Part shown: piece by piece, positions 3,526 through 63,479 of the stretch
How positions within the stretch are numbered: the stretch's first letter is position 1
Layout: every line of letters begins with the position of its first letter
Virus record (IMG/VR): IMGVR_UViG_3300028534_000028
Span: 1,124 to 65,123 of that record
Strand: one strand, 5' to 3'
Source: a virus
DNA length: 64,000 nt
Program-made: the position numbers and the translations under genes
The notes under the pieces: model-generated
What the model was told of the DNA's origin: nothing
What the model saw: only the letters and a program-made list of their open reading frames with translations
The model's database searches: none

Positions 3526-3699
3526 ATGACGGATGATATTAAACAAGTTCTGGAATATATTATCGAAACGGAAGATCCTTATGGATTAAAACCAGAAACA
3601 TTATATGAAAATATAAAAAATAGTATTGGTACTCCAGAATCTTTAGCAGAGATTTTTGGAGTACCAATTGATCTTGTCGTTAAAATTAAGGAAGATTAA
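3526..3699 (+). CDS. small hypothetical protein (57 aa, not in ORF track)
   Basis: SD AAGGA, MTDDIKQVLEYIIETEDP...KIKED*. Confidence 0.65.
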   Translation: MTDDIKQVLEYIIETEDPYGLKPETLYENIKNSIGTPESLAEIFGVPIDLVVKIKED

Positions 3700-25398: not shown

Positions 25399-25423
25399 TT
25401 ATTTAAATATAAAAGGAAAAAAA

Positions 25424-33499: not shown

Positions 33500-33529
33500 A
33501 AAAAAAGAACCTTCGGGTTCTTTTTTTTT
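33500..33529 (+). terminator. intrinsic terminator, probably bidirectional
   Basis: A7-GAACC-TTCG-GGTTC-T9, cUUCGg loop. Confidence 0.9.
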
Positions 33530-33555
33530 GCTAGAAAAAATAAAAAAGGAAAATA

Positions 33556-36223: not shown

Positions 36224-36294
36224 CTATTCATAATAATTATATAGATATGTTTATTATATGAATTATTAAATTTATTAAATTAAGGAAAATAAAA

Positions 36295-36792: not shown

Positions 36793-36800
36793 GGATTCTC

Positions 36801-38327: not shown

Positions 38328-38335
38328 GGATTATT

Positions 38336-38872: not shown

Positions 38873-38881
38873 GGAATTGTT

Positions 38882-39151
38882 ATGACATTAGAAATTAATA
38901 AAAAAGCGATATTAGAGGAATTCGAATTAAATCCTTTTAAAATTTATGCTAAGTATAAAGTAAATAAAGATATGGAAGCTATGCGAAAAGGTTTTGATTC
39001 GTCAAAAAATATTAAACCAGAAATGGTAAAAGATTCTCCTAAGGTTGTTAGTATTGAACCAGAACATACTGGCACTTTAGAAAATACTATGTCAAATATA
39101 CATAATCATAATGCTGCGTTAGAAGACGCTATGAAAATGTTAAATCATTAA
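38882..39151 (+). CDS. hypothetical protein
   Basis: 89 aa, SD AAGGA. Confidence 0.65.
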   Translation: MTLEINKKAILEEFELNPFKIYAKYKVNKDMEAMRKGFDSSKNIKPEMVKDSPKVVSIEPEHTGTLENTMSNIHNHNAALEDAMKMLNH

Positions 39152-39159
39152 GGGGAAAT

Positions 39160-39519
39160 ATGTTTTTAAAATTTCAAAACACCATAATAAATATCAAAAA
39201 TATTGGTTTTATAAAAAAGAAAGATAATAGATATTATTGCCAATATCGAAAAAAAGCTAGTATAAAAGAAATTCAAATACATATGGTATTTGGAGATTTA
39301 AATGATAGTCAATATTTTATGAAACATGGTTTTTATAAATTGGATAATTATTTTATTAATCCAAATGCTATTAATTTTGTAAATGTAGAACCTATTCCAG
39401 ATTCAAACGAATCAAATATTCATTTTTCATTTATGAATGGATTGGAATTAGAATTTAAAATGGATCAGGGGCGATTCAATGTTTGGGTAAATAACAGGCT
39501 CAGAAATACTGGAAAATAA
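39160..39519 (+). CDS. hypothetical protein with two similar halves (F.K...IN...I.F)
   Basis: 119 aa, SD AGGGG. Confidence 0.6.
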   Translation: MFLKFQNTIINIKNIGFIKKKDNRYYCQYRKKASIKEIQIHMVFGDLNDSQYFMKHGFYKLDNYFINPNAINFVNVEPIPDSNESNIHFSFMNGLELEFKMDQGRFNVWVNNRLRNTGK

Positions 39520-39524
39520 TTATT

Positions 39525-39568
39525 ACGGATAAGCGTTCATAGAACGCTTATCCGTTCCTGTCGTTAAA
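39525..39568 (+). promoter_or_regulatory. hairpin + TCCTGTCGTTAAA element
   Basis: ACGGATAAGCGTTC-ATA-GAACGCTTATCCGT followed immediately by TCCTGTCGTTAAA. Confidence 0.65.
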
Positions 39569-40036
39569 TTTCGAATATATTTATATTAATAGCTAAAATT
39601 TAAACTTTAGAATAAGTATTAATAAGTATAGATATCTTATAAACAGTGATATATAAGAAGCATGAAAACTTTTTATATATTGCGCAATTAAAATTACAGG
39701 AGTGTCTTCATATGACAAAAAAAATAAAATCCACTTGGAAAGGAATCAAAAAATTAGGTAAAAAGATAATTAAATTAATGAAGAAATTGATTAAGAAGTT
39801 TTCAAAAGTTTTAAAAAAACTTACGGAACCTAAATTTCTAATATTTATAAGTTTTGTAAACTTTACGGATATTAGTAATAATATGGATAATATAAATATA
39901 TTTATAAATTTATAAATATTGGAAATTTAATTATTTAGTTAATAATATAAGCGAAAGCTCTTAGTAAATGGTAAGTCTAACTTCTCGTCGGTGGACGTTA
40001 AGCACAAAAAATTTTAAATATAAAAAGGATAAAAAA

Positions 40037-40195
40037 ATGAAACATAATGAAAATACAAGAAAACTTATAAAAGTTTTCTTAACGTTAAATCCTAAAGGGT
40101 CGGTATCTGAGTTCAGTAAATGTAAAAAATGTTTACAATCGGGAGTTGATTTGCTTGTGGCATCTGGTAACCAACGAGTTATAGAAACTATGTAA
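40037..40195 (+). CDS. small hypothetical protein
   Basis: ATG 40037 with SD AAGGA inside track ORF 39968. Confidence 0.45.
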   Translation: MKHNENTRKLIKVFLTLNPKGSVSEFSKCKKCLQSGVDLLVASGNQRVIETM

Positions 40196-40530
40196 TGGTA
40201 GAAAATGGTAGAAATGGTGTAATCATGGTTGATAATATGATTGGAAAAACTTTTGGTAAATTAAAAGTAATTGAGTTTACCAAAAGTAAACATTCTCACA
40301 AATACTATAATTGTAAATGCGAATGTGGTAAAATAAAAGAAGTTTCCGGACCTAATTTAAGATCTGGAAATACTGCGGGATGCGGGAGCTGTAATAAGAA
40401 AAAAATTTTTTCTATTACAGATGAAGAAATTATACGAAAAATAAATGAATCGAATATAACCCAAGTTGCTAAAGAACTTGGTTGTACTAGAGGAGTACTT
40501 TATCGTATTAAAAAGGAGAATGAATGCTAG
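40195..40530 (+). CDS. homing-endonuclease-associated Zn domain + HTH, no nuclease domain
   Basis: IGKTFGKLKV...CKCECG...LRSGNT.GCGSC; ITQVAKELGCTRGVLY. Confidence 0.65.
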   Translation: MVENGRNGVIMVDNMIGKTFGKLKVIEFTKSKHSHKYYNCKCECGKIKEVSGPNLRSGNTAGCGSCNKKKIFSITDEEIIRKINESNITQVAKELGCTRGVLYRIKKENEC

Positions 40531-40949
40531 AACGTAAAATTCTTATGGGAATTATTTTATATAGTTTTTTATATACAATTCCAAAAAGTTTTCCCATTGG
40601 TAAAATGGGTCGTAAAAACATTATGAAAGCTCTTAAGAAACAACTTAAGATTTATGATGTTAAAAAAGGTCGTAAAGAGTATTTAAAGCTTATCGAATTG
40701 GCCGAAACTGTTATGTCAAATACTAAGGTTGTTTTTTCGGGAGAAGAATTAGAAATGCTTAATCCAGGAGCTTTATTCGCAATCCTTGAAAAAAATTATC
40801 CAGAGTATTTAGAAATTTTTGAAATTAAGCAATCGTGGCTTGATAACATCAAGGGTAATTATTTGGGTACAGGAAATAATACTTTTGTAAGTGTTAAGTA
40901 CACTAATAAACTTATTAGTGAAATTGAAGAAAATTGTAAAGGATTATAA
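40524..40949 (+). CDS. hypothetical protein
   Basis: 141 aa, SD AAGGAG. Confidence 0.65.
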   Translation: MLERKILMGIILYSFLYTIPKSFPIGKMGRKNIMKALKKQLKIYDVKKGRKEYLKLIELAETVMSNTKVVFSGEELEMLNPGALFAILEKNYPEYLEIFEIKQSWLDNIKGNYLGTGNNTFVSVKYTNKLISEIEENCKGL

Positions 40950-41212
40950 TGTCGGATGAGAAAGAATCAAATGACCAAAATGAATTAAACGAGATCGGAG
41001 AGATAAAAATAAGTTATCGTAGAAATTCTAATTGGGATATAGAAGTTTTTAATTTGGAAAAACATGATTTGGTTGATTTAAAGTCTATTATATTTGAAAG
41101 ACTTTTATATAAACATAAAGATGGTAATCTTGATTTTGATATCATTGATATTAAAATAAAATATACTGGAAATTTATTATTTACGGTTATTGTTTTTTAC
41201 CAAATTAAATAA
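40949..41212 (+). CDS. hypothetical protein
   Basis: 87 aa, coupled. Confidence 0.6.
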   Translation: MSDEKESNDQNELNEIGEIKISYRRNSNWDIEVFNLEKHDLVDLKSIIFERLLYKHKDGNLDFDIIDIKIKYTGNLLFTVIVFYQIK

Positions 41213-41228
41213 TGCGAGAGGATCGAGA

Positions 41229-41635
41229 GTGATTACAAAACAGGTAAAATTATTAAAATTAGCTAAAGGTTATAAAGCTGGAAAACCAGCTTTAGTTGAG
41301 TTCGATACTTTAGTATCACTGTTTGAAGAAAGAAACGGTTTAGCCAAAGAACTTAGTGAAGTACTTGAAGAAAATCAAAAACTTCGAGAACAACTAAAAA
41401 AAGAACGTAGAGTAAATGATACAAAAGAAAGAAGTTGGTTAGAGAAATTAAAAAATCTAGGAGTACCGACAGATAAAGCAAATAAATCGGCTGGTAATTC
41501 CGTTCTAGCCGATTTACAATGTAATTCTTTCTAGCCGATTTACAATGTAAGTTAAAAAATAAACATGATAAAAAGGCTCGGCGTAAAAAAATTTTTACGA
41601 AAGCAGAATTATTATTGGGAGATTACCAAGAATAA
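41229..41635 (+). pseudogene. paralogue of 42523-42912 disrupted by a 26-nt duplication
   Basis: GTG start; TTCTAGCCGATTTACAATGTAA at 41503-41524 and 41529-41550; removing the extra copy restores ...KKIFTKAELLLGDYQE*. Confidence 0.75.
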
Positions 41636-41660
41636 TTAAAATTACATAAAAGGAGAAAAG

Positions 41661-41864
41661 TTGTTAGAAATTAAATTAAATAAGTATTTAAAAAAACATA
41701 ATGTAACTGAAAAAGAAATTCTTGATTTTAGAATAGAGGATTTTTACTTTAGTGAAGGATTGTTTTATATGAAGGTGAGGTGTAAAAGCATGGATTCATT
41801 TAATGATGAATTGTGGTTTAGTGTCGAAGTACCACTTGGAAAAGTAGTATTTGAAGATAAGTAA
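41661..41864 (+). CDS. hypothetical protein
   Basis: TTG start, SD AAGGAG. Confidence 0.6.
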   Translation: MLEIKLNKYLKKHNVTEKEILDFRIEDFYFSEGLFYMKVRCKSMDSFNDELWFSVEVPLGKVVFEDK

Positions 41865-41901
41865 AATTTAAATAAAAATTTAAATAAAAAAGGAAAATAA
41901 A

Positions 41902-42510
41902 ATGTTAAAATCAGTACAAAAAATGGTTGTGAGTTTAGTAGTTGTTCTTGGAATTTTTAGTGTAGCTTCGGTGAAAGCTAGCGAGCCAGAAGTAATCTAT
42001 TCAATGGACCAATTTAAAAATGGTAATGAAAAATTAGGAACGTTCTTTATTCCTAAACCACATCACGGAACGATTAAATATTCTGTAGAGTTGGCTAATT
42101 TAAAAGGTTCTACCTTAATGGAACCGGAATTATTACAAGGCGTATTTGTAAATAAGGCTCAAGAAGTTGTAAACTCAAGTCCATTAAAAAGAAGATTATT
42201 CTTAGGAAAAGATTTAATCTTATATGTATTCGTAGATCCAAAATTTTTCAGAATTGGTGTTGATATCGCAAATCCAGGAAGTCTGACTGGACGTATTATG
42301 ATTGATATGGATAAAGCTAATTTAGATAAAAATGGAAAAAAAATAGTAATTATCCAAATGCCGGAAGATAAGTTAATAGTACAAGTCGAAATTTTTGATA
42401 TTGGTAAATCCAAAAGAAAACAATACGGTATTAAAGTAACTGCTGTCTATAATGAAGAGGATGCTTTTAAAATTTTTAGAACGTTCGAAGGTGTTTTAAA
42501 AATTTGGTAA
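41902..42510 (+). CDS. exported protein with signal peptide
   Basis: Basic N-terminus, hydrophobic MVVSLVVVLGIFSVA, VKA-S cleavage-like site. Confidence 0.65.
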   Translation: MLKSVQKMVVSLVVVLGIFSVASVKASEPEVIYSMDQFKNGNEKLGTFFIPKPHHGTIKYSVELANLKGSTLMEPELLQGVFVNKAQEVVNSSPLKRRLFLGKDLILYVFVDPKFFRIGVDIANPGSLTGRIMIDMDKANLDKNGKKIVIIQMPEDKLIVQVEIFDIGKSKRKQYGIKVTAVYNEEDAFKIFRTFEGVLKIW

Positions 42511-42522
42511 AAAGGATGAATT

Positions 42523-42912
42523 ATGGTATATACTAGAGAGAAAATTGAAGCTATGAGAATAGCCAAAGGGTATAAGGTTGGGGAACCAGCCTTAGTAGCA
42601 TTTGAGGTATTAATAGAGTTGATTGAGTCTAAAGAACAAGCACTCGATGAAGTTCAGGAATTAATTGAAGAAAATAAAAAACTTCGTGATCAATTAAAAA
42701 CTGAAAGAATTGCTAATGCGAATAAGGAGAGAGATTATCTAAAGGAATTAAAAAAATTAGAAAATCAAATTGAAAAAGCTAATGTAGCAGCGAGTACTTT
42801 CTTAGCGGCGGAAGTTCATAGAAAATTCAAAGCTAAAAAAGTTGCGGCGAAATTAGAAAAGAAAAAAATCTTTTCCAAAACTGATTTATTATTAGGAGCA
42901 TATAATGAGTAA
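42523..42912 (+). CDS. coiled-coil protein, paralogue of 41229-41635
   Basis: AKGYK.G.PALV.F and KKIF.K..LLLG.Y.E shared. Confidence 0.7.
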   Translation: MVYTREKIEAMRIAKGYKVGEPALVAFEVLIELIESKEQALDEVQELIEENKKLRDQLKTERIANANKERDYLKELKKLENQIEKANVAASTFLAAEVHRKFKAKKVAAKLEKKKIFSKTDLLLGAYNE

Positions 42913-43185
42913 CGAAAGTGGTAGATCACTTTTACCAAAAGGTGAAAAAGTATAGTAATCGTTTGGTAAGCGTTAATTTTAAAAGAAGAGGAAGTTCCAG
43001 AAGCTTTAGAAATGTTAAAAGATATGGGAGCCAAAGAAAAGCACACTGTTGTATCATGGTTACGGATATGTCACTTTCAGCAATATTCGGGATGCTCATA
43101 AATTAACGACATGAATAGAAATAATAGTATAGATAATACTATTATTTCTTCCGACAATTTATTTTATTTTTTTATTTAAAAACGC

Positions 43186-43309
43186 GATAACTATCTATAG
43201 TAAACTATCAATGGTATAACCATCTTTAGTTGATATATAGATAGCTATACTACTATACATACTATCAACTAAAGATACCACATACTATGAATAGTTAACT
43301 AAGTGTCGT
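43186..43309. repeat. dispersed palindromic element, copy 3, at the convergence of the two gene blocks
   Basis: TATCTATAGTAAACTATCAATGGTATAACCAT, TATAGATAGCTATACTACTAT, GATACCAC, AATAGTTAACTA; 14-bp IR 43222-43235/43263-43276. Confidence 0.8.
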
Positions 43310-43329
43310 ATGTTAGATATTTACCTATT

Positions 43330-43369
43330 TTTACCGACAGGAGAGGAATTCCGGAATTTCCGGAATTCC
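43330..43369 (-). promoter_or_regulatory. hairpin + TCCTGTCGGTAAA element
   Basis: GGAATTCCGGAA-N-TTCCGGAATTCC (43345-43369), then TCTCCTGTCGGTAAA on the - strand. Confidence 0.65.
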
Positions 43370-43376
43370 AAAATTA

Positions 43377-43889
43377 TTAATTTTCTATTTTATTGACTAA
43401 TGGACCCTTTCTACGGTACTTTGTTCCTATGGATTGAATAAGACCAACCTCATAATCTAAAAGTTCTTTAGCGTCAGCAAAGACCTGATGGATAACGATC
43501 CAGTTTAATTGATATTCTTTCCAATCATGTGGAACTCCTAACTCATTATTCTTTTTCGCTATTTCCATATTTTTTTCTATTTCTTTAAATTTTTCAACTT
43601 TTAAAACATTATGTTCTTTATTTTTTAAGTAAGATTGTATGTGTTGGTTATGTCTATAACCCGCACCTCTAGAAGCTTTGCCAACGTAAATAGGTTCGTA
43701 AGCACTACAATATCTTTTACCATCTGGAGCCTTAATATCAAAAGCTTTGTTCAATTTTTTAAAAGGATCTAAATAAATATAAATATAAAATTGATATCTG
43801 TTATAATTGAAATTATCTACTTTTGGATAAATTTTATAAAGTTTCAATAAATTCATATTATTACAAGTGCTTTTGATATTTTGATTCAT
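43377..43889 (-). CDS. GIY-YIG family endonuclease
   Basis: FYIYIYLDP...EPIYVGKA...R...H, later E in YEVGLI. Confidence 0.7.
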   Translation of the reverse strand: MNQNIKSTCNNMNLLKLYKIYPKVDNFNYNRYQFYIYIYLDPFKKLNKAFDIKAPDGKRYCSAYEPIYVGKASRGAGYRHNQHIQSYLKNKEHNVLKVEKFKEIEKNMEIAKKNNELGVPHDWKEYQLNWIVIHQVFADAKELLDYEVGLIQSIGTKYRRKGPLVNKIEN

Positions 43890-43890
43890 A

Positions 43891-44259
43891 TTATACTCCT
43901 AGTTTTTCAATTGTTTTTTCAGTAATCTTATCTATAAAAGAAATATCTTGAACCAAAGAATCTAGAATTTCTTTTTTAATTATTTCTTTATTTTCAGTTA
44001 ACGAAGTTTTTAAAAGTTCTAATTCTAATCTTAAGTTGGTATTTTCTTCAATTAGATTTTCTATGGTAACTTTTTCAATTTCCATAAATTTTTTTAAATT
44101 ATCTATTTCTTCTTGGATTTTTTTATCTAAATTATCTTGAAAATATTTATTATCTTTAGATATAAAATCAATTTTTTTAGTTATTTCTTTTTTAAAAGAA
44201 ATAGTTTTATTATTAAAATAATTTTTTAATTCTTTAAATATTTCGTTATAATTCTCCAT
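43891..44259 (-). CDS. coiled-coil hypothetical protein
   Basis: 122 aa, SD AAGGA. Confidence 0.6.
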   Translation of the reverse strand: MENYNEIFKELKNYFNNKTISFKKEITKKIDFISKDNKYFQDNLDKKIQEEIDNLKKFMEIEKVTIENLIEENTNLRLELELLKTSLTENKEIIKKEILDSLVQDISFIDKITEKTIEKLGV

Positions 44260-44269
44260 ATTTAAATCC

Positions 44270-44464
44270 TTATTCTATTTCAGAAGCTTCTTGCTCCGCT
44301 AATAATTTTAATTCTTCTTCGGTTTTAAAAAATTCTTTTTCTAAATCAACTCCGTCAAAACGTACTATTTTTCCATCTGCTTCTACCTCTTTAGTATTCA
44401 CGTCATATTTAATTACTCCCGCATCTGGGAGTAATTTTTTAAAAGTTTGCATTTTAATTCTCAT
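44270..44464 (-). CDS. small hypothetical protein, possibly fibre-associated
   Basis: 64 aa, SD AAGGA. Confidence 0.55.
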   Translation of the reverse strand: MRIKMQTFKKLLPDAGVIKYDVNTKEVEADGKIVRFDGVDLEKEFFKTEEELKLLAEQEASEIE

Positions 44465-44475
44465 TTTTATTTCCT

Positions 44476-47400
44476 TTAATGTATTTTATAAAGTTGAGCT
44501 TTAAGTAAAAAGGTAACCTCAGAATAAACTAAACTTCTTAACATAATTCTAACTTCTTGGCGTTCTTTTAAAACGATTTGTCCACTCGCATTGTTATAAT
44601 TACCTTGAGTACAATCCATAAGATTAAACATATTGGTATCTTTAGATTTATAAGTATCGTCTAAATAAGTACTTGGTGTTAAACTACCATAAGAATCGAA
44701 ATCCCCTTGTGGAAGTACTAAAGCCTGACCAATAAATTCATCAATATCTGTATAATTAGCTTTTATATTATCAATATAATTTTCAGTACTTATATTAAAA
44801 TTATAAACTCCAGCATCTAAAGTAATTGTTTTCATAACCTGCCAATCTGTAACAGAAACCATTAAATATTGAGAACTTCTAAGAGAATTTAATTCAGTTC
44901 TTGGTTCTGGTAAAATAGAAACCGTTTCGGATGATGTGCTAGGCAATTCGACCGATTCAATAAAACCATTGCTATTAGTAAGAGTTAATATATTTCCAGA
45001 AACATTTAACGCTTTACCATCTTCGGCTAATCCAACATATTCCGATTTTAATACTAAATCGGTAATTTCTTTACCATTTAAAGTATTCGTATCTAAAGAT
45101 TTAGAAACTATTTTTCTACCTTCTAAAACATCATTAATGTTATTTTCTAGTTCTGCTTCTTTAGAAGCACTTCTTTTAATTTCATTATCAATTTTATTGG
45201 CTAAAAGATTTTCTGCATCTACTGCTCTTTTTTCTTCATTCTTTATTTTAGCAATTAATTCTGTATCATCGTAATTAACAATATCCAAATTTTTTAAAGC
45301 TTCCGAAGTTAAATCATTTAATTTTATTTCTAAAGCAGCCGTATCGGTAATTAATTTAGTAATTTCTTCATTAACGATATTATTATTAGTATCTGAGCTA
45401 ATTTTTAATTCTTCTATAGTTTTATTAGTTAATTCTAATTCGCTTTTTAATTTTGAATTAGCTTCTTCGGTACTTACTAAAGTTTCTTTAATTGAAATTA
45501 AATCTGATAATACTTGATTAAGTTCTTCGGTTTTAGTTTCTAAATTACTTAGTCTACTTTCATTAGCTGTAATTAAATCACCAATATCTTTATTTTCAAT
45601 ATCTATAGAATTAATATAATTGATAACTTTAGCAAACGAATCTAAATCCATCGTACTACCATTTATAATATCTTCTATTTGATTTTTTACAATTACTATT
45701 TTGTTTTCTAATTCACTTTCTTTATTGATAGCTCGTTCTTCTTCTTTAGCAATTAAGGAATGTACTTCTGTATCGTCGTATGCTTCTGGAATTTGGATAT
45801 CTTCCATTTTAGAAGATAAACTATTTAAACTAGAATTTATTTCATCAAGTTCTTTATTAATATTTTCAATATCTAAAAGAGCTTGGTTAAATTGTTCTAA
45901 TTCTTCTTCAGTCATTCCTTCGTTATCATCAGAATCATCATTTAGAAAACGATCGTAATATGTAATTTTATCATTTATTTGCGAAAAATCATTATTTAAT
46001 AGAGTTAACGAATTCTTTAATTCTGCAACCGTTTCTGATTTTTCTATTTTACTATCCAAATCAATATTTTCCAAAATATTAATTTTTTCGTTAAGTTCGT
46101 TTAGTTTTTCATCTGTTTCTAAAGTTTTACTTTCCGTTGTATTTATTTTTTCTAATAATACTCCTGTATTATTATTTAAAACTTCTTCGGTTGTATTTAA
46201 TTTGGTTTCGGTACTAGCTAATCTAGTTTCCAAATCAATTTGTTTTTTATCGGTTTCCGTAAATTTATATTCATAATCTGCTTTTATTTTAGCTTCAGCT
46301 TCATTAATATTTTTTACTTCGTCGTTAAAAAGAGTTTTAAATGTATTTTCATTAACTTCTAAATTATTTTGTATTTCCGTTACTTTATCATTTAAATCTT
46401 TATCTAAAGAATTTAAATTATTTTCAAATTTTATATCTAGATTTTTTAAATCGGTTTCGAATTTTTCTAATTTTACAGTATGATCATTTAAAGTATTTTC
46501 TAATAATTGTTCTACTGTTTTTGATCTGGTAGTTTCATTTTCTACTTTAGTATCTATTGTAGAAACACTTTCGCTTATTTCAAGAACTTTTTCATTATTT
46601 TCATTTTTTATAGCAATTTCTTCTTTAGAAGCTCTAGCGGTTTCGAGAATTACTTTTTCATCAACTGCTTTTATTTTATTATTAATTTCTGCAATTATTG
46701 CAGGTAATCGATCATCAGATTCTAAATCAATACTATTAACCAAATTTACTATTTCCGCAAAAGTTTCGGTATCTGTGGTACTGGCGGTTAAGATAGAATC
46801 AATACGAGAACTTTCGATGGAAAGTAAAGAATTAATTTTATCCACCGTCGCATCATAAACTCTATATTTTTCATCAATTGTTGTTTGTAAACGTTGTTCT
46901 TCTAAAATAGCTCTAGAAGTTTCGTTTTCAATTTTAGTATTTAATTCGGATTCTGATTTTTCAGCACGCGCGTTTTCATTAATAATATCAGTTTTTAGAG
47001 AATTTTCATTGGTTCTAGCTGTAAGAATTTCATTATCTATTTTAGTATCTAAAATATCACTTTTCTTAACACAGTCTTCTTCTAATTCATCAATCTGTTC
47101 TTGAAGATCAGCCTCTACCGATTTAGCCCTAGAAATTTCATTATCTAATCGAGAGTTAATATAATTTTCTTCTTTTGTAGCTCTAATATTTTCTTGTGAA
47201 ATTAAACTATTTAAATAATCTTCTTTAATTTTAGCTCTATCGATTTCATTATCTAAATTATCCGATAATTTTAATTCTTCCGATTTAGCTCTTTGAATTT
47301 CATTATCTAAATTTTCAGCTATTTCTTTTTCGCTTTTAGAAGCTCTAACTACTTCAATATTAATTTCATTTTGAATAGTATTTTCTGCATCAGTTGCTCT

Positions 47401-48759
47401 AATTATTTCATTATCTATTTTATCATCTAATTTTAAATAATTTGATTTATGTTTACTATCGCAATCGTCAATCTGTTCTTGAAGATATCTTTCCGATTCT
47501 AAAGCTCTATTGGTTTCGTCTTCGATTTTATTATCTAAAGCTTCTTCTGATGTTTTAGCTCGAACTGTTTCATCTTCTAAATCTAAAGCAATTTCCTTTT
47601 CCCTTTTAGAAGCTCTAGTTGTTTCAATATTCAATTGATTTTGAATAACATCTTCCGACGTACCTGCTCGAATAATTTCATTATCTATTTTATTATCTAA
47701 TTCTTGAATAACTTTATTATTACTAACGACATATCCAGCAAATGCGTTATCATTTTCCAAATCAACCGCTTCTATAAAATCAACTATTTCTTTAAATGAA
47801 TCTTTATCCGTTGTACTTAAAGCCAACATATTATCGATTCTTTCAGTCTGAATTCTTAAATCATTTTCTAAAGCAATATCACCAGCAATTCTTGCTTGTT
47901 CTTCTTGTTTAAGATTAAATGTTAAAGTATTGTTATTTTCATCAATTTGATCTTGAAGATCCGCCTCAACTGCTTTAGCTCTAGAAATCTCATCGTTTAA
48001 ATCAGAATGAATACAATTATCATTTTCAGTAATTTGATCCTGAAGATTTTGTTCTTTAGTTTTAGCCCTGGAAATTTCGGCATTTAAATTATTAGTAATA
48101 TTTAATTCTGCCTCTATAGCTCTTGAAGTTTCATTTTTAATATTAGTATTTAGAATATTTTCTTGATTTTTAGCTCTTTGAATTTCAGTATTTAAATTAT
48201 CAGTTAAAGTATTTTCGGCATCTGTAGCACGAGAACCTTCCTTAGAAATCAATTCTTTAATATCTGTCAATTCGATCTGAACGGTATCTTTATCCGCTTT
48301 AGTAAGTTTTAAAGTATCTAATTGATCCTGTAATGAAATTCTTAACGTATTAATAACATCGATTAAAGCAGCATTTAAATCATCTATGAGTTTTTGAGCC
48401 AAAATTTTATCTATTTTTCTATCATCTAATTCATCGGTAACCGTTAAAAGTTCCTGTCGAACTTTTTTTAAATTTTCCGTGGATTCTATTTTATCAATTT
48501 TCTTTTCATCCAATGTTCCGTAATTGGAATCAATTTTATTGTTAAGATCTGCTAAATCTTTTGCGTATTTTATCAATGTGACAAATTCTTCTACTGCATT
48601 TTCAAATTTTAAGTCAATTTTATCTAAGGTCTCTGTTTTTACATCAACTATTTTTTGTTCAATTATCTGTACATCTTTTTCAACCGAAACCAAAACCTCG
48701 TTAACTTTTACTTCAGTATGTCTTGAAGTTTCTACTGCCAATTCTTCTAATAATGACAT
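44476..48759 (-). CDS. long coiled-coil tail fibre/whisker-like protein
   Basis: 1427 aa; repeated E..RA...E..L; three DSF.EI/V..I junction motifs; C-terminal beta-rich domain. Confidence 0.7.
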   Translation of the reverse strand: MSLLEELAVETSRHTEVKVNEVLVSVEKDVQIIEQKIVDVKTETLDKIDLKFENAVEEFVTLIKYAKDLADLNNKIDSNYGTLDEKKIDKIESTENLKKVRQELLTVTDELDDRKIDKILAQKLIDDLNAALIDVINTLRISLQDQLDTLKLTKADKDTVQIELTDIKELISKEGSRATDAENTLTDNLNTEIQRAKNQENILNTNIKNETSRAIEAELNITNNLNAEISRAKTKEQNLQDQITENDNCIHSDLNDEISRAKAVEADLQDQIDENNNTLTFNLKQEEQARIAGDIALENDLRIQTERIDNMLALSTTDKDSFKEIVDFIEAVDLENDNAFAGYVVSNNKVIQELDNKIDNEIIRAGTSEDVIQNQLNIETTRASKREKEIALDLEDETVRAKTSEEALDNKIEDETNRALESERYLQEQIDDCDSKHKSNYLKLDDKIDNEIIRATDAENTIQNEINIEVVRASKSEKEIAENLDNEIQRAKSEELKLSDNLDNEIDRAKIKEDYLNSLISQENIRATKEENYINSRLDNEISRAKSVEADLQEQIDELEEDCVKKSDILDTKIDNEILTARTNENSLKTDIINENARAEKSESELNTKIENETSRAILEEQRLQTTIDEKYRVYDATVDKINSLLSIESSRIDSILTASTTDTETFAEIVNLVNSIDLESDDRLPAIIAEINNKIKAVDEKVILETARASKEEIAIKNENNEKVLEISESVSTIDTKVENETTRSKTVEQLLENTLNDHTVKLEKFETDLKNLDIKFENNLNSLDKDLNDKVTEIQNNLEVNENTFKTLFNDEVKNINEAEAKIKADYEYKFTETDKKQIDLETRLASTETKLNTTEEVLNNNTGVLLEKINTTESKTLETDEKLNELNEKINILENIDLDSKIEKSETVAELKNSLTLLNNDFSQINDKITYYDRFLNDDSDDNEGMTEEELEQFNQALLDIENINKELDEINSSLNSLSSKMEDIQIPEAYDDTEVHSLIAKEEERAINKESELENKIVIVKNQIEDIINGSTMDLDSFAKVINYINSIDIENKDIGDLITANESRLSNLETKTEELNQVLSDLISIKETLVSTEEANSKLKSELELTNKTIEELKISSDTNNNIVNEEITKLITDTAALEIKLNDLTSEALKNLDIVNYDDTELIAKIKNEEKRAVDAENLLANKIDNEIKRSASKEAELENNINDVLEGRKIVSKSLDTNTLNGKEITDLVLKSEYVGLAEDGKALNVSGNILTLTNSNGFIESVELPSTSSETVSILPEPRTELNSLRSSQYLMVSVTDWQVMKTITLDAGVYNFNISTENYIDNIKANYTDIDEFIGQALVLPQGDFDSYGSLTPSTYLDDTYKSKDTNMFNLMDCTQGNYNNASGQIVLKERQEVRIMLRSLVYSEVTFLLKAQLYKIH

Positions 48760-48769
48760 ATAATTTCCT

Positions 48770-49162
48770 TTATTTTAGATTATTTTTAAAATCTTCTATA
48801 GTACCAATATAGTTTTTAAAATTGGTAATATCAGCCTTTATATTTAGTTTATCCAAATCATTAGCGTCTTTATATTCAGTATCTCGTTTAAGAAAATCTT
48901 GAAAATCCACATGGAAACTATAAATATCCATTTTAATAATGTTTATTTTCATCATTAAATCTTTATATAATTTTCCTACTTTTGATCCAATGAATGGAAG
49001 AAGTTTATCGTTTGGTACATCGTCCGTATATAAAATATCTTCTTCAGAAGTATTAGTAATAATACTTCTGAGAACATTTTCATCTTCCTTTACCATTAAA
49101 TCTATTTGATCTACTGGATCATCTGTTGTAGTCGTTGTAGTTGTTGTAGTTGTATCTGCCAT
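48770..49162 (-). CDS. hypothetical protein with N-terminal poly-Thr
   Basis: 130 aa, SD AAGGA. Confidence 0.65.
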   Translation of the reverse strand: MADTTTTTTTTTTDDPVDQIDLMVKEDENVLRSIITNTSEEDILYTDDVPNDKLLPFIGSKVGKLYKDLMMKINIIKMDIYSFHVDFQDFLKRDTEYKDANDLDKLNIKADITNFKNYIGTIEDFKNNLK

Positions 49163-49171
49163 CGTCTATCC

Positions 49172-56362: not shown

Positions 56363-56380
56363 ATTAATCCTTTATTTTAT

Positions 56381-56776
56381 TTAGCTTATTTTTAAAAACC
56401 CATTATCGTTCCAAACTTTATTTGGTTCGTTAGGTTCTGTCGTTGGAAATAATTTTCCAAAATTCTCACTTAATAAAAAATCTATATTTATTAATGAGTT
56501 GATATCTTCGAAATTATTTAACTATGAGGTAAGAATTCTTCCATTCTCGTAAATTTCTAAACCATTTTTTCTATTACTATCGTCTGATCCAACACCAATT
56601 TCAACCAAAGTATCTGATTTTCCATTATTATATTTTTTAATAGTGGTTGAACCATTATTTGTGACGATTGTTCCGATACCACCTGCATGAGATCCCTCGC
56701 AGTAAGCTATGGTTTTATAACATAGGTTGGTTAATTCATCAACCCATAAACTCTGAACTATTTTATTTTTAGCCAT
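56381..56776 (-). CDS. small fibre/adhesin-like protein with in-frame TAG at 56522-56524
   Basis: EGSHAGG...IGVG.D...R.NG.EIY.NG, then after TAG the frame stays open for 46 codons ending FPTTEPNEPNKVWNDNGFLKIS*. Confidence 0.7.
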
Positions 56777-56807
56777 ATAATCGCCTTAATTTTAATTATT
56801 CTTTTGT

Positions 56808-59267
56808 TTAAAATGTTATATTTATATTAATATTTTGTAAATCAAATTGAAAAAATGGTGGACAGAAATTTAATAAATCTTCAAAAGTCAATTGTTCTTT
56901 AATATTATAATAAATAGTATCCGAATCGTTTATTATAAATACAGATGGTTCAAGTACTTCTATATTTTTAATATATGGATAATCCGAATCAATATTATAT
57001 TTTGAATAAATGAGATTTTCTAATTCTGATTCAAAATATCTCATTTGAAATCCTCGCTTGGATTTAAAAAAGTTTATAACATCTATTTCCAAACTTAAAT
57101 TTAATTCGGTTAATGTTTTAAAAGTAGTACTTATATCAAAATAATTTTTATCTATATAAATATTTAATGTAATTTTTTTATTAAGACTCATATCGATATT
57201 ATTATTTTTCTTGTATACTGAAATATTATATTTTGGATCAAGTACCAAAGTATTATAAAAACATTGAAAAATTCTAGTATTAAAATTAACCAAGTTAGTT
57301 ATTTCTTGAACTTTAAAGAAATCGTTTAATAAGTTATATTGTGTCTGAAATTCCAAAGTACTAAATACTGTATCTACAAATGGTAATTTTAATAAAATAC
57401 CTGTTTCGTCATTTGAGTAAGGGTATAGTACTTCGGAAGCTTCTGCCAAAATATTTCTTAATTCATTATCTAAATATCCTAAAGATATATCAGATAAATC
57501 AACTATTTCTGGAATATAATTTTCAGAATTTTTTTGATAGTATTTAAAAGCTACTTGTTTGGGAATTAATTGATAAAGATCATCATTATTATAAAATTTA
57601 TTTAAAACATTATTATTACTATCCTGTACTTCTAATTTAATTTCATAATTTGGTTCTTTTAAAATACAATAATCGTCTGTAAACAATGAGTTTACTTCCC
57701 AAGTAAAATTATTAGCATAATCTAAAGTAAAAGCAAAATTATCAAAAGTAAAATTATATTTTAAATCATTCGAAGCACCTTGGTCAATTATAAAATAACT
57801 TTTATTAGTATTAAAATCATAATTTAAAGAAAATACTATATCTGTATCAACGGTATTTAAAACATCGGGTACTAATTCAATATATATTTTTGGATTAACT
57901 ATATACATTTCTGTTTCATTACTATTTAAAAATTTATAGTAAAATGGACTCACTAATTCTTTACCATTTATATTAATTTTTGGATAAAATGGATTGGTAG
58001 CAATAATAGATTCTTCTATATTTTGAGAATATGAATCAATTACTACACTATTATTTTGTATCATAGTTTCTAAAGTATTATATACGAATACAAAATTTTG
58101 ACCATTTAAAAATTTATTATCTATAAATGGACGTATACCATTATTTTCAAAATATATTTCGAAATCATTTACAGATGTTAAACTTTTTCTATACGATATT
58201 TTATTAAAAATATCTTGTTTTATCTCATCGGAATTTTGAATATTTTTACCATCTTTACCACCATCAATACTAATACCATTCAATGAATATTTAGTAAGAT
58301 CAGTTAAACCATTCTCATTTATAATAGTAGTTTCAACATCATTAAGCATAAAAGAAAGATTATTAAAATTCCCTTCTTCGCCAAGCGTTTCATCCACACA
58401 AATAATAATTTCATCATTTGTATTTAAATATCTACCAATTCTTCCATCGCCAGTTTCAAAAGAAACACTATTATCAAAAATATTCATAAATAAATCAAGA
58501 CTTAATCTATTACTTTTAAATTTAAAAAATTTATTTGAGAATTCATCCATACCAAAAGCTGTACTTACTTCATCTGGATCGTATTTTTCTAATAAATCCA
58601 TTTGAATTTTATCTTCTGTATTTGGATTATACCAAGTTCGGATACTTCTAATATTTTTATAAGTACTTACATTCGTATTAAATTTAAATGTATCTCCTAT
58701 TGGATAATAAGGGACTATTACTTTTTTCCAGTTTCTTTTTAATTGTAATACATTATCATAATGAATTAAAAATATATTTTGTCCAGGAGATAATGGGTCT
58801 GGAGCGATAGTTACCAATAATTGTACTTTAGTTGTTTTTGTATATTTGTAAGCAGTTACTTGAGAAGTACTTTGTATAATTTCTATTCTATCCATTATCA
58901 TAAAATTAACATTATTTTCATCAACGAACTCAAAATTTTCTGGTATATTATATATCATATTTTTAACATTTGCTATTGTTATTTCTGGAACAATAATACT
59001 AATATTAAATTTTGGTGGTTCCGCGAATTGCAATTGAGTATCATAAATACTACTATGAAATAACATACTGTTAAAATCCCTAGCTAAACTAGGATTCATT
59101 TCTCTAAATAAAGTATTGTAATAATTTGCCATATCGTATTTAATATTAGCTAAATAATCCGCAATTACTCCAAGAGCTCCTGATTTTAATAATACAGGAT
59201 TTGTAATATTTAATTGATCCTGTATTATATTTCTGAATTCGGTTTGCGTAAATTCTATTGATTGCAT
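56808..59267 (-). CDS. baseplate wedge-like protein (T4 gp6-like)
   Basis: 819 aa in structural block; GGKD...DEIK...RKSLTS.NDF pattern. Confidence 0.6.
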   Translation of the reverse strand: MQSIEFTQTEFRNIIQDQLNITNPVLLKSGALGVIADYLANIKYDMANYYNTLFREMNPSLARDFNSMLFHSSIYDTQLQFAEPPKFNISIIVPEITIANVKNMIYNIPENFEFVDENNVNFMIMDRIEIIQSTSQVTAYKYTKTTKVQLLVTIAPDPLSPGQNIFLIHYDNVLQLKRNWKKVIVPYYPIGDTFKFNTNVSTYKNIRSIRTWYNPNTEDKIQMDLLEKYDPDEVSTAFGMDEFSNKFFKFKSNRLSLDLFMNIFDNSVSFETGDGRIGRYLNTNDEIIICVDETLGEEGNFNNLSFMLNDVETTIINENGLTDLTKYSLNGISIDGGKDGKNIQNSDEIKQDIFNKISYRKSLTSVNDFEIYFENNGIRPFIDNKFLNGQNFVFVYNTLETMIQNNSVVIDSYSQNIEESIIATNPFYPKININGKELVSPFYYKFLNSNETEMYIVNPKIYIELVPDVLNTVDTDIVFSLNYDFNTNKSYFIIDQGASNDLKYNFTFDNFAFTLDYANNFTWEVNSLFTDDYCILKEPNYEIKLEVQDSNNNVLNKFYNNDDLYQLIPKQVAFKYYQKNSENYIPEIVDLSDISLGYLDNELRNILAEASEVLYPYSNDETGILLKLPFVDTVFSTLEFQTQYNLLNDFFKVQEITNLVNFNTRIFQCFYNTLVLDPKYNISVYKKNNNIDMSLNKKITLNIYIDKNYFDISTTFKTLTELNLSLEIDVINFFKSKRGFQMRYFESELENLIYSKYNIDSDYPYIKNIEVLEPSVFIINDSDTIYYNIKEQLTFEDLLNFCPPFFQFDLQNININITF

Positions 59268-59280
59268 TCGATTCCTTTAA

Positions 59281-60240
59281 TTAATTTTGTGTATAAGCGG
59301 ATGTATCATCCGAAGTATTCGAATAGTTTAAAAAGTCAAAAAATTTCTTTCCTAGCGTCGTTTCATTATTAGCTCCATTTGACACTTTTTGTAATTTATC
59401 CCATCCATCTATAAACATATATTGCATATCCATAAATTTAAAGTTTAGATTATAAGTTACTGCTTTCGGAGAGCCTCTATCACCGATTAAATTTTTTAAT
59501 TGAGTGTTCATCGGCATTACTCCAAACAAGGCTATAATTCCTCTAAGATCAACTCCTTTAGAATCTAAAAGAGCTATCCAAACAGTATTACAATATGGGT
59601 TATCTATTAAATAATCTTCTTGTATTAAATTCTCAAAGTAATCCGCTGCAGCGTCGGAAGAATAACTGAAAAATAAACCTTCCCGTATTAAATCTATACT
59701 TTTATTCCAAGCTTCCATGTATTTAAAAATTCCCAAATCTTTATTATCTATAAAATTCATATTAAAATCTGATCCAACATAATCTCTCGTATTAATAAAA
59801 GAATTTTTTTGTCTAGTACTAATTGCCATATATTCTTTGGTTGGTTCCGGTAAAGAAATATCAGTAATTGTTTGGCTAAATTTTAATAAGTTTGTAAATT
59901 TTTTTCCATATAATTCATAATTGTTTATACGAATGTCTGTTTTTTTATTATCCATTAAACTAATATAACCAGTTACTGCCGGCGGTATTCTATCATCTTT
60001 TACAGCATATTCGTGAAGCACTTTAAACCAAGTACCATGTTGCATAAAAACTGCATAATTACCACTTATAAATGGACTGAAAGTTGAATAATCTATACCA
60101 AACGTTTTGGTAAGACTTGTTAAAAAATTAAGTAGTTCGGTATTTTCAACACCCGAACCACCATCTTCCTTATCCGCTGATAATTGTGATTTTATATGGG
60201 CGGTTATCTGGTCTTTGAAAAATGTTTCTTCTGATGCCAT
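59281..60240 (-). CDS. tail tube/baseplate hub-like protein (gp19/48/54-like)
   Basis: DISLPE...F.MNFID...IFKYMEAW...GVMP; structural context. Confidence 0.5.
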   Translation of the reverse strand: MASEETFFKDQITAHIKSQLSADKEDGGSGVENTELLNFLTSLTKTFGIDYSTFSPFISGNYAVFMQHGTWFKVLHEYAVKDDRIPPAVTGYISLMDNKKTDIRINNYELYGKKFTNLLKFSQTITDISLPEPTKEYMAISTRQKNSFINTRDYVGSDFNMNFIDNKDLGIFKYMEAWNKSIDLIREGLFFSYSSDAAADYFENLIQEDYLIDNPYCNTVWIALLDSKGVDLRGIIALFGVMPMNTQLKNLIGDRGSPKAVTYNLNFKFMDMQYMFIDGWDKLQKVSNGANNETTLGKKFFDFLNYSNTSDDTSAYTQN

Positions 60241-60298
60241 TAATATTCCTTTAATTTTATATATTATTTTTGTTAAGTTATTTTAATTAGTCTTATAT

Positions 60299-60340
60299 TT
60301 TAACGACAGGAAAACGAAGAGGCTATTTCCTCTTCGTTTT
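60299..60340 (-). promoter_or_regulatory. hairpin + TCCTGTCGTTAAA element
   Basis: AAAACGAAGAGG-AAATAG-CCTCTTCGTTTT with the stop codon in the loop, continuing into TCCTGTCGTTAAA on the - strand. Confidence 0.65.
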
Positions 60341-61306
60341 ATTATACCTAGATATATTTTCCAAATGATTTAAAGAAGTTAAGTCATCATAAAATTTATA
60401 ATTTTTTTTTAAATATTTTTTACCTTTTAAATTATATTGGGCTTGAATAAAATTATCCAAATCTTTTGGAAGACATGCACCACCTACACCAAGTTTTCCA
60501 TCTCGCGCTATACTAAAAGTATTAAAACCATATGTATGTTCTTTTTGATACTGATTAAATCTTCTAAGATCCGTTTCAAATAAATCTGGAACAGTATTTA
60601 AAAACACAAAATGATTCATAAGCAACATATTTCTAAAATATTTGTATTCCATAACTTCTGTAAAAGTACCAGTACTATAATAATGAATACGGTGAATTAA
60701 AAATTTATTTAATACTTGAACAGCTTTTTCAATAAGAATTGGATCTCCTCCGAATAATGGGATTTCGGTACTAAAATCTTTTTCTGCAGTTCTGGCGTTT
60801 AAAAATTCTGGCCAAAAAATTAAATTAAAATTATCTAATTTTAATCCATGTTTTTTATAGAGATATTTTTCTAAAAGATTTGGAAGTACAGTACTTTTAA
60901 TTATCAGTATTCCTTTATAGTTAAAATCATGATAAGCTTTAAATAATTCGACTAAACCCTTTACCGATTTCTTACTACCAAATTTTTTAAAATTATTTTT
61001 ACCCGATACCGTATCTTCCTTATTTATTTTATCTGGAAAATAATCCGTATTAATAGTAATAATATTTAAATCGGTATCTAAGGTTTTTGCAAAATTATTT
61101 ATGTATTTATTTTCTAAAGAATAAATTTCGATACAATTTTTTAAAGTATTTTTTACATTTTTATAAATGGCTTGATTAACTACTCCAAAACCAACTAAAC
61201 CTATTTTAGTTAATCTTTGCTTAGATAAATCCTCAGTCTCTTCAATACTCTTGACTAATTTATCTAATGGTAATTCTATTTCTTCTTCCATTTTTTGATA
61301 ACCCAT
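60323..61306 (-). CDS. UDP-glucose/NDP-sugar 6-dehydrogenase-like protein, short phage form
   Basis: GLVGFGVV, IKSTVLP, PEFL, KYFRN, GVGGACLPKD; C-terminal substrate domain largely missing. Confidence 0.8.
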   Translation of the reverse strand: MGYQKMEEEIELPLDKLVKSIEETEDLSKQRLTKIGLVGFGVVNQAIYKNVKNTLKNCIEIYSLENKYINNFAKTLDTDLNIITINTDYFPDKINKEDTVSGKNNFKKFGSKKSVKGLVELFKAYHDFNYKGILIIKSTVLPNLLEKYLYKKHGLKLDNFNLIFWPEFLNARTAEKDFSTEIPLFGGDPILIEKAVQVLNKFLIHRIHYYSTGTFTEVMEYKYFRNMLLMNHFVFLNTVPDLFETDLRRFNQYQKEHTYGFNTFSIARDGKLGVGGACLPKDLDNFIQAQYNLKGKKYLKKNYKFYDDLTSLNHLENISRYNKTKRK

Positions 61307-61315
61307 TTTGATACC

Positions 61316-61933
61316 TTATAAAATAATATTAATATGATTCATAATTAAATTATGAATTTCATTTATTTCTAATGTAGCGTCGACTACTAAAACATTATGT
61401 CCAAATTCTTTCATTATTTCTAGTTCGTGTAAATACTTTTCACGAACTTCTGTTAATTTCTCTAAGTTTTCATATCTTTCTATATTTGTAAGATCGTTTT
61501 TATTTCTTTCCTGAATTCTTTTTAAACTATGGATAGGCTTCATATCTAGAAAAACCGTAAGATTTGGTTTTAATAAATCTCCAGTATCCATTTGCTTAGA
61601 ATTATATACTTTAGAACTTAAAGAATATCTAACACTTATATAATGTTTCTTATCTTCGGATATTGTTTTATAAATACCATTTTTAGTATTCCAAGTTTGA
61701 TAAATTCTATCAGTATGCATTAAATAAGATAAAAATAATTCCTCATCTGCTTTAATCATACTTGGGTTAATTAATTCTTCTCTGATTACTTCTTGAAGTT
61801 TTCCTTCTCTTGTTGGAGCATATCCTAAATAAGAATTTGGTAAAGCTTGGTGTAAAAGAGCTGCCTGAGTATCTTTCCCCGAACCATCTAAACCTTCAAT
61901 TACTATAAATTTTCCATTTTTTTCGTTTTCCAT
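61316..61933 (-). CDS. tmk: thymidylate kinase
   Basis: FIVIEGLDGSGKDTQ, VRYSLS, KPNLTVFLD, ERYE. Confidence 0.88.
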   Translation of the reverse strand: MENEKNGKFIVIEGLDGSGKDTQAALLHQALPNSYLGYAPTREGKLQEVIREELINPSMIKADEELFLSYLMHTDRIYQTWNTKNGIYKTISEDKKHYISVRYSLSSKVYNSKQMDTGDLLKPNLTVFLDMKPIHSLKRIQERNKNDLTNIERYENLEKLTEVREKYLHELEIMKEFGHNVLVVDATLEINEIHNLIMNHINIIL

Positions 61934-61963
61934 AAAATTTTTCCTTTAAATTACATGTGTTTT

Positions 61964-62070
61964 TATCTATAGTTAACTATCGATGGTATAACCATGTATA
62001 GTTATCTGTATAGATAACTATACTACTATTGATACCACGTGGTATTAATAGTTAACTATTAATAGTTATC
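61964..62070. repeat. dispersed palindromic element, copy 4
   Basis: TATCTATAGTTAACTATCGATGGTATAACCAT, TATAGATAACTATACTACTAT, ATACCACGTGGTAT, 22-bp palindrome 62043-62064. Confidence 0.8.
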
Positions 62071-62088
62071 CGTTTATTTTCCAAACCT

Positions 62089-63318
62089 TTAAATGCTTTT
62101 ACAATTAAGAAATTTAATATAACTTAGAATACTAGTAATCATTATCTTACTGTATCTATATTCATTTTGTGTACTAATATGTTTAGTATCCTCGTTTGGG
62201 ACATGTAATACATTAATAGCAATACTAGTATTAAATTTTTTAAGTTTATCGAAGTACTCATCTTTTCTCGAACTTGTAATTCTATTAGCTAAGACTTCCA
62301 TATTCATACCACATAATTCTTCTTCATTTCTTAATTTAAGACCATTTAAAAGTAATTCAATATAGTATTTTAAATCTTCTTTATTATTATCATCATCCAA
62401 GTACTGATCAATTTTTTGAATAACCTGATTACCCAAAAAGAATTTTTTATATAGCATATCTTTAATAGGACTTTTCTCAATTACTCTAGTTTTTAATAAA
62501 CCATTTTTTATAATTTTATCGGAAAGTCTTTCTATAATATTATTAAAGTGTTCTTTCTTTTCAATCATCTCACCAGAGTTTTCATAAGAAGTACTGTGAA
62601 GTTCATGTACTGATTCCGATTTACCTGATTCAACCGCTTTATAATAATTAGTAGCCAGGTTTTTAAATAGTTGATTATAACGACTTCTAATGGTAGTAAT
62701 AACTCTCTTTAAACCAGCGTAATGATGAGTAGGATCATTAGCAATCTCTTTTGGATAATTATTTTCTAGAGCAGGTAAAGTAACTTTCATAATATAATTT
62801 AATGGGCTACCGGCACTTTTAAAAGAATGATTACCTTGCAATTCATAATTCATTACGTATTGGCTAATTTTAGGATCACATATATTTGGGAAGAATCTAA
62901 GTTTATAATAATTCCAGATAAGAATACTTATAAGTAATAAAGCATATTGACGAAGTTCTTCATCATTGTTATCTAATCCAATTAAATAAGCCATACATAA
63001 AGTAGTGTAATAAGATTTGGTATATACTATAGAACCTTTTAAAGAAAATTGTTCCATTTCATGTTGTAATTGTCTTTCATTTACTCCATAAAGTTTTAAT
63101 AATAAATCCGGAAGTTTTTTAGAAACTGGAAAATAATCACAAAATGAAGTATGTTGCATACTATCCTGCATCACTTTATGACTAGCTAATTTTAAATAAC
63201 CATCCTTAAGTAATTGATAAGCATGTTTATCCGTTTTAAATTTATCCAAAATAGCAATAACCGTTGGGCTAATTTTAGAACGATTAAGTATTACAGGGTT
63301 TGATTTATAGTTTGACAT
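62089..63318 (-). CDS. hypothetical helical protein
   Basis: 409 aa, SD AAGGA. Confidence 0.75.
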   Translation of the reverse strand: MSNYKSNPVILNRSKISPTVIAILDKFKTDKHAYQLLKDGYLKLASHKVMQDSMQHTSFCDYFPVSKKLPDLLLKLYGVNERQLQHEMEQFSLKGSIVYTKSYYTTLCMAYLIGLDNNDEELRQYALLLISILIWNYYKLRFFPNICDPKISQYVMNYELQGNHSFKSAGSPLNYIMKVTLPALENNYPKEIANDPTHHYAGLKRVITTIRSRYNQLFKNLATNYYKAVESGKSESVHELHSTSYENSGEMIEKKEHFNNIIERLSDKIIKNGLLKTRVIEKSPIKDMLYKKFFLGNQVIQKIDQYLDDDNNKEDLKYYIELLLNGLKLRNEEELCGMNMEVLANRITSSRKDEYFDKLKKFNTSIAINVLHVPNEDTKHISTQNEYRYSKIMITSILSYIKFLNCKSI

Positions 63319-63371
63319 ATTATTCCTTTTTGTCTTGATGTTATTTTTATTTATAATATCTCTTTGTTTAA

Positions 63372-63430
63372 TATATCTATATAAGATGAGTATAGTTATC
63401 TATTCATCTATATAGAAATTGTATAGATAT
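63372..63430. repeat. degenerate copy 5 of the palindromic element
   Basis: TATCTATA, GTATAGTTATCT (identical at 61996-62007), GTATAGATAT. Confidence 0.5.
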
Positions 63431-63443
63431 AACATGCTAAAAT

Positions 63444-63479
63444 CCACAGGAAATCATTAGAGAATTTCTTCTCTAATGA
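63444..63479 (-). promoter_or_regulatory. hairpin + TCCTGTGG variant element
   Basis: TCATTAGAGAA-GAAA-TTCTCTAATGA, then TTTCCTGTGG on the - strand. Confidence 0.55.

Follow-up and report, generated by a model that had tools for sequence, protein, structure and literature searches.

A gene-end hairpin with a fixed C- and G-containing tail as a putative transcription terminator in a lineage of AT-rich jumbo phages

What does a hairpin do at the end of a gene when it is followed by a fixed sequence instead of a U-tract? The question was raised by a 64,000-nucleotide (nt) stretch of viral DNA (positions 1,124 to 65,123 of IMG/VR record IMGVR_UViG_3300028534_000028; here called the window, in whose coordinates positions are given unless another sequence is named). 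In this stretch, a first-pass annotation had described four gene-end hairpins with unrelated stems, each followed by TCCTGT(C/G)G. All four were present, each on the coding strand (Table 1), and their stems of 14, 11, 12 and 11 base pairs (bp) agreed with the described range of 11 to 14 bp; the distance between stem base and motif start ranged from -1 to 2 nt (0 to 2 nt in the first description). The two hairpin-less copies of the motif said to lie inside coding sequences were real as well (18055 and 48452), but the second is antisense to its gene. The hairpin + TTCCTGTCG signal is real: in the 65.9-kilobase (kb) contig that holds the window, a strong hairpin (≤ -10 kcal/mol) lies directly upstream of four of the six TCCTGTS sites, compared to a background of 1.5% (binomial probability, 7e-7), and the combination appeared in 40 shuffled sequences with a mean of 0.1 and a maximum of 1. 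The motif TCCTGTS by itself was not overrepresented (6 copies in the contig, 5.1 in the shuffles). We consider the element probably (at about 70%) a factor-independent, intrinsic-type terminator of this phage lineage with a sequence-defined pause tail that would be read by one or both of the phage multisubunit RNA polymerases. A sequence-specific terminator or pause for a phage RNA polymerase had been among the first suggestions for these sites, and it gained support from the polymerases of close relatives, from the junction statistics and from a shared register with the RNA 3′ ends of phage 201phi2-1.

The window is a fragment of an AT-rich jumbo phage of about 281 kb. Its contig (G000; 27% G+C) encodes a topoisomerase II, a piece of a family B polymerase, ClpB, a thymidylate kinase, HNH endonucleases and large fibre-like genes. 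Two IMG/VR records (G002 and G010) share sequence at both ends and thereby join into a circle of 281,330 bp (C281). No other complete genome was as closely related to the phage of the window, and 54 proteins of G000 matched the circle with a median identity of 79%. The contigs G003, G004, G007 and G010 to G015 apparently represent an undescribed clade of jumbo phages of about 270 to 280 kb with two multisubunit RNA polymerases and a T4-like topoisomerase II.

In seven related contigs, 53 intergenic gene-end sites were found. The element consists of a hairpin of free sequence (10 to 16 bp) followed by TTCCTGTC^GTTA, where the caret separates position -1, the last base of the predicted RNA, from position +1. 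The tail consensus reads T(-9)T T C C T G T C(-1)^G T T A A A; its sequence conservation is strict and includes positions +1 to +5. The 53 stems were all different, without a common loop. At the sites orthologous to 39525 in G001 and G002, an unrelated stem precedes an unchanged tail, and the orthologue of 63444 in G002 differs by two compensatory pair changes; thus, the stem is kept as a structure and the tail as a sequence. The stem base was located at -7 to -10 in 43 of the 53 sites, counted from the 3′ end inferred from 201phi2-1, a distance that would suit a terminator, and about a third of the stems ended at -10 or further. Within the clade, the tail takes the form TTCCTGT(C/G) in G000, G004, G007, G011 and the circle, TTCTTGT(C/G) in G014 and YYYCTGTGC in G003. 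At 29 sites of G012, the hairpin is followed by TTTTTTGTC^GTTA, a U-tract form with the same GTC^G ending. This ordinary U-tract terminator, which ends in the same way, connects the window tail with the terminator class. The 17-base tail pattern alone was sufficient to recover further members of the clade.

The placement of the element between genes was then compared across six genomes, with counts of junctions and sites that are approximate because genes were called crudely, as the longest open reading frame (ORF). At tandem junctions, the element was found 92 times on the sense strand and once on the antisense strand. It was carried by 18 of 39 convergent junctions and by 2 of 43 divergent ones (P = 1.5e-5; the genomes are related, so P values overstate independence and are indicative only). 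The 53 sites included 41 between co-oriented genes and 11 that point into an oncoming gene. At some convergent genes, a single hairpin was flanked by the tail in both directions (G007, 119085-119185; C281, 158488/158497), and such hairpins are here called two-sided. The sense bias, the convergent and divergent counts and the two-sided junctions together indicate a placement of the terminator type and not of the promoter type.

Subunits of a virion and a non-virion multisubunit RNA polymerase (AR9/phiKZ-related, with a DxDGD motif) are encoded in C281, G003, G007, G011 and G012. A tree built from the C-terminal subunits of beta-prime placed these phages in a separate clade (support values, 100/100 and 100/99) apart from phiKZ/201phi2-1 and from AR9/phiR1-37; the deep branches (84/79 and 90/88) joined phiKZ with AR9/phiR1-37, which are without the G-containing tail. 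The chimallin profile phrog_4795, which finds 201phi2-1 at 1e-220, gave nothing in G002, G010, G011 and G012, although a very distant homologue could escape it, and a tubulin search of the clade gave no match. The clade is apparently non-nucleus-forming, as judged from these profile searches. A tblastn search for cultured relatives returned distant matches only. The polymerase genes themselves vary in their architecture. The non-virion beta-prime C-terminal subunit has about 1,020 amino acids in G014 (37095-40160) and G015 (35877-38957), compared to 630 to 690 in relatives, which suggests an intein or a fusion. The virion beta subunit is a single gene of 1,599 amino acids in G003 (122613-127412), an adjacent gene pair in G012 and split over two distant genes in G007 (45097-48210 and 125485-127278), G010 and G011.

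The register of the tail could be compared with published RNA 3′ ends. The terminator motif of phiKZ ends in YTTATKYYGT (Putzeys et al. 2024, PMC10914365), and motif A of 201phi2-1 is similar to it (Poppeliers et al. 2024, PMC11512511). We placed the eight 201phi2-1 termination positions given in the text of the latter paper on its genome; five coincided with TTTATG(A/T/C)(C/T)^G, two more were in the same register and one was a base off. The window tail aligns base for base with these ends (TTTATGYY^G), the main difference being C-C versus T-A at -6/-5, and the minus-strand copy at 43111 has the A of the 201phi2-1-type tail. A hairpin with TTATGNYG occurred 37 times in phiKZ, 45 times in 201phi2-1 and never in G000 and C281, and a hairpin with TCCTGTS occurred 21 times in the C281 circle and never in phiKZ; hence, the tails do not cross between the groups. 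The G-containing tail was absent from AR9, phiR1-37 (first 200 kb), Va1, Arash and D69, where A/U tails are present. Most likely, the element would be the stop signal mapped in phiKZ in a new sequence form, in which the U-run has largely been replaced by a fixed C/G-containing tail. According to this model, the phage multisubunit RNA polymerase would transcribe an inverted repeat of any sequence and then reach the fixed tail, where it would pause after ...UUCCUGUC, ahead of a G (a pause site of the pyrimidine-then-G type). Closure of the hairpin up to -7 to -10 would then shorten the RNA:DNA hybrid, and the transcript would be released. The fixed tail would replace the U-tract in that pausing is set by the sequence and not by a weak rU:dA hybrid. 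The element, its placement and conservation, the polymerase genes of a close relative and the register with the 201phi2-1 ends were observed directly; we infer the position of the 3′ end in this phage, release as opposed to processing, and reading by a phage enzyme, with the late (non-virion) polymerase as the more frequent reader.

Several observations weigh against this interpretation. The fragment G000 has no RNA polymerase gene of its own. The calculated stability of the 8-nt hybrid is -5.8 kcal/mol, compared to +1.6 kcal/mol for U8, and an enzyme of the bacterial type would be expected to have difficulty in releasing RNA from such a hybrid, although the value calculated for the mapped 201phi2-1 tail TTTATGCC is similar (-5.2 kcal/mol). 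AR9 and phiR1-37 possess the same kind of polymerase, yet have plain A/U tails. The tail is missing from many gene-end hairpins, most of which lie on the replication strand. Finally, 201phi2-1 terminators were also active in uninfected host cells (PMC11512511), so specificity for the phage enzyme is not established even for that phage.

The strand on which the tail occurs bears on the identity of the enzyme. In the C281 circle, 18 of 24 structural-strand hairpins were tailed, compared to 4 of 20 on the replication strand (these counts include two misassignments: a U-tract site was scored as tailed, and a two-sided site was scored as untailed although it has the tail). In four other genomes, assigned by orthology, the tail was found at 40 of 56 structural-strand and 13 of 34 replication-strand hairpins. 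This bias hints at the late (non-virion) enzyme, with exceptions such as a tail after the non-virion beta gene. Two-sided hairpins of G011 carry the tail in one direction and a U-rich tail in the other. Together with the bias in all five genomes, they give hints of a polymerase-specific stop code, a possibility that we regard as tentative and rather doubtful: the late enzyme would read UUCCUGUC^G by its sequence and release from a strong hybrid without a U-tract, and the early or host enzyme would read through and stop at A/U-tailed hairpins. If this were true, the clade series of U-tract plus GUC^G, UUCUUGUC^G, UUCCUGUC^G and YYYCUGUGC would record the co-evolution of terminator and polymerase.

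Other functions have to be weighed against intrinsic termination. The element could be a hairpin-stabilized pause of the his type that leads to termination only with the help of a factor from phage or host, or that merely slows the polymerase between genes. In the his pause, the +1 position downstream of the hairpin is likewise a conserved G, which stimulates the hairpin-dependent pausing of the Escherichia coli enzyme (PMC4499132). The 41 sites between co-oriented genes and the third of stems that end at -10 or further would also fit a pause, but the convergent and two-sided sites need a real stop. Most stems can pair to -7/-9, closer to the end than in the his pause, where the spacing between hairpin and end is roughly 11 nt. 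The pause step is common to both explanations, which differ solely in the need for a factor, and we consider a factor-dependent pause unlikely. Similarly improbable is an RNA-processing or stabilizing signal, also among the first suggestions, at which a phage or host endonuclease would cut at or just past the tail and the hairpin would shield the new 3′ end from exonucleases. The strict conservation of +1 to +5 and a hybrid too stable for a classic terminator favor such a signal, and the long-read 3′ ends of phiKZ and 201phi2-1 alone do not separate termination from trimming. However, the distance from stem to predicted end equals the hybrid length of a polymerase, the G012 form is a textbook terminator with the same ending, and 201phi2-1 elements placed in reporter traps lower downstream expression (PMC11512511).

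A promoter core or protein-binding box directly behind a terminator hairpin is very improbable. The first-pass annotation had listed a promoter core with an upstream hairpin, and both the conservation that extends into the AT-rich stretch (TTAAA) and the co-oriented gene downstream of most sites agree with it. However, the element is depleted at divergent junctions, where promoters must be, and enriched, sometimes two-sided, at convergent ones; the tail keeps a fixed spacing to a hairpin of free sequence, and 11 sites face an oncoming gene. The junction counts contradict the promoter reading, and it was rejected. An anti-Shine-Dalgarno tail, in which UUCCU would pair in read-through RNA with AGGAA at the ribosome-binding site of whichever gene follows (phage sites read AAAGGA(A/G), complementary to UUCCU), is hardly credible and was rejected as well, as CC at -6/-5 is kept equally at convergent (9/11) and tandem (about 35/41) sites and is missing from the G012 tail. 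A signal of the host type was also discarded: in cellular genomes, exact matches to the 17-base tail were taxonomically scattered, and only 2 of 79 had a hairpin, which is about background. An Rfam search of the window at gathering thresholds gave no match and therefore no known ribozyme or riboswitch. Among sequencing runs, none with RNA was listed for window positions 38500-44500, a result without bearing on expression.

Table 1. Hairpin elements of the window with their tails and predicted RNA ends (the caret precedes position +1)
Site	Strand	Hairpin	Tail	Predicted RNA 3′ end	Location	Remarks
39525..39568	+	39525-39555; 14 bp, -21 kcal/mol	TCCTGTC^GTTAAA; motif from 39556	C39562	3′ of ORF 39160-39519, 5 nt past stop
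43330..43369	-	43369-43345; 11 bp	TCTCCTGTC^GGTAAA; motif from 43342	C43336	7 nt past stop; final gene end of minus-strand block, convergent junction
60299..60340	-	60340-60311; 12 bp	TTTTCCTGTC^GTTAAA; motif from 60311	C60305	Hairpin loop contains stop codon of ORF 61306-60323
63444..63479	-	63479-63454; 11 bp	TTTCCTGTGG; motif from 63451	T63446 or G63445	Stop within hairpin; downstream of HNH-type endonuclease ORF
43107..43149	-	43149-43117; 14 bp, AT-rich	ATTCATGTC^G (tail TTCATGTCG)	C43108	Second minus-strand stop, just ahead of converging plus-strand gene	Fifth member, overlooked by first-pass annotation
3625..3685	+	20 bp, -23 kcal/mol	TCTTGTC^GTTAAA (TCTTGTCGTTAAA)		Within last third of 57-amino-acid ORF 3526-3699 (after folE), 25 nt ahead of ORF stop	Doubtful member; stem-to-tail gap larger than usual
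33500..33530	+		Canonical U-tract			Non-member, contrast case; same form in G001

The U-tract terminator noted earlier at 33500 proved to be of the canonical form. The hairpin of the fifth member is identical in G001 and G002, where the tails are TTCATGTGG and TTTTTGTCA, respectively, and it also stands 3′ of the plus-strand gene that ends at 43106, there with a different tail. Two-sided hairpins have another recurrent tail, TTCCGACAA / TCTCGACAA, on their replication-strand side (window 43150-43160 [+]; C281 202446 and 214166 [+]); at window position 43150, relatives carry TTCCGCAAA. This second tail is possibly another type of signal. The doubtful element at 3625-3685 is kept in G002 (at about 3930-3995), where the synonymous sites of the stem arms are unchanged, and the orthologous site of G011 has a different hairpin without the tail. 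Located inside an ORF, it could be an attenuator-like element or a premature stop. Gene-end hairpins at 3476-3502 and 11278-11300 (+) and at 44411-44436 (-) are kept in G002 and are followed by plain A/T, with neither a U-tract nor the tail; they may be stabilizers, processing sites or leaky stops. One more hairpin, with the tail TTTCATGTCA, lies upstream of the window at G000 contig positions 169-203, next to tandem Pro/Ala/Ser-rich coding repeats at the contig start (1-165).

AT-rich palindromic blocks of TAACTA/TAGTTA units were observed at 12175-12196, 22560-22680, 25350-25400, 43190-43310, 61960-62070 and 63380-63430, several of them directly downstream of terminators. The blocks at 25350 and 43298 have a 13-base stretch containing AAGTGTCGT in common. 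A promoter role is unlikely, since one block sits in a convergent gap. The ORF at 38336-38872 (+) matched the Pfam family Acb1 (anti-CBASS phosphoesterase; E value, 3e-16).

In bacterial transcription, it is a matter of debate whether a hairpin that lacks a U-tract can bring about termination by a multisubunit RNA polymerase. A full-text literature search for the motif gave as its sole match an unrelated oligonucleotide in an AR9 paper, and literature searches returned no paper on this jumbo-phage clade and none on in vitro termination by phiKZ-type enzymes, so that no purified-enzyme test of jumbo-phage polymerase termination was among the papers found. The tails of the clade form a natural series in which a U-tract gives way to C/G-rich sequence and the ending stays the same, and the U-tract question is therefore easily testable by swaps. 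The pyrimidine^G-ended tail extends beyond the phiKZ-like nucleus-forming phages, and the motif marks operon ends in genomes of the clade that standard terminator finders would miss. As the parallel phiKZ signal has already been published, the advance is a moderate one.

The element can be compared with four known systems. With the class II terminator of T7 (ATCTGTT), which acts independently of a hairpin on a single-subunit polymerase, it shares a short fixed CTGT-containing sequence as a stop or pause signal; unlike there, a hairpin is always present at the gene-end sites, and the polymerases found are multisubunit enzymes. The consensus pause has a pyrimidine at -1 and G at +1. As in this pause and the his pause (a class I hairpin pause), a pyrimidine^G stands at the predicted end with a hairpin upstream, but in contrast to the his pause there is no conserved G at -10, the stem is closer to the end, and the sites lie past stop codons and not in leaders. 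The canonical bacterial intrinsic terminator is a hairpin followed by a U-tract of 7 to 9 nt (PMC3993855). The element resembles it in its gene-end hairpin, its sense polarity and an upstream A-tract that extends the stem, and its stem base would probably lie at a comparable distance from the RNA end (about 8 nt predicted; 7 to 9 nt in the canonical form). However, only 2 to 4 U's follow the stem, and C or G occupies four of the final eight positions; the U-rich tract of 7 to 9 nt is found in the clade member G012 only. With the terminators of phiKZ and 201phi2-1, the element has in common a gene-end hairpin with a fixed U-poor tail, a stem-loop just past the stop codon on the sense strand, the register T(-8) T(-7).. 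T(-4) G(-3) Y(-2) Y(-1)^G(+1) T(+2), two multisubunit polymerases (in relatives) and two-sided cases at convergent genes. Unlike those phages, the lineage gave no chimallin or tubulin match, and its polymerases group separately with full support. The tail consensus is TTTCCTGTCGT in place of the TTAT box, with A at -5 in 3 of the 53 sites only, and instead of the CCCTCCC/GGGAGGG stem consensus the stems are free in sequence, AT-richer and longer. The element would thus function like the phiKZ/201phi2-1 terminator, yet departs from the literal tail and stem consensus of that family.

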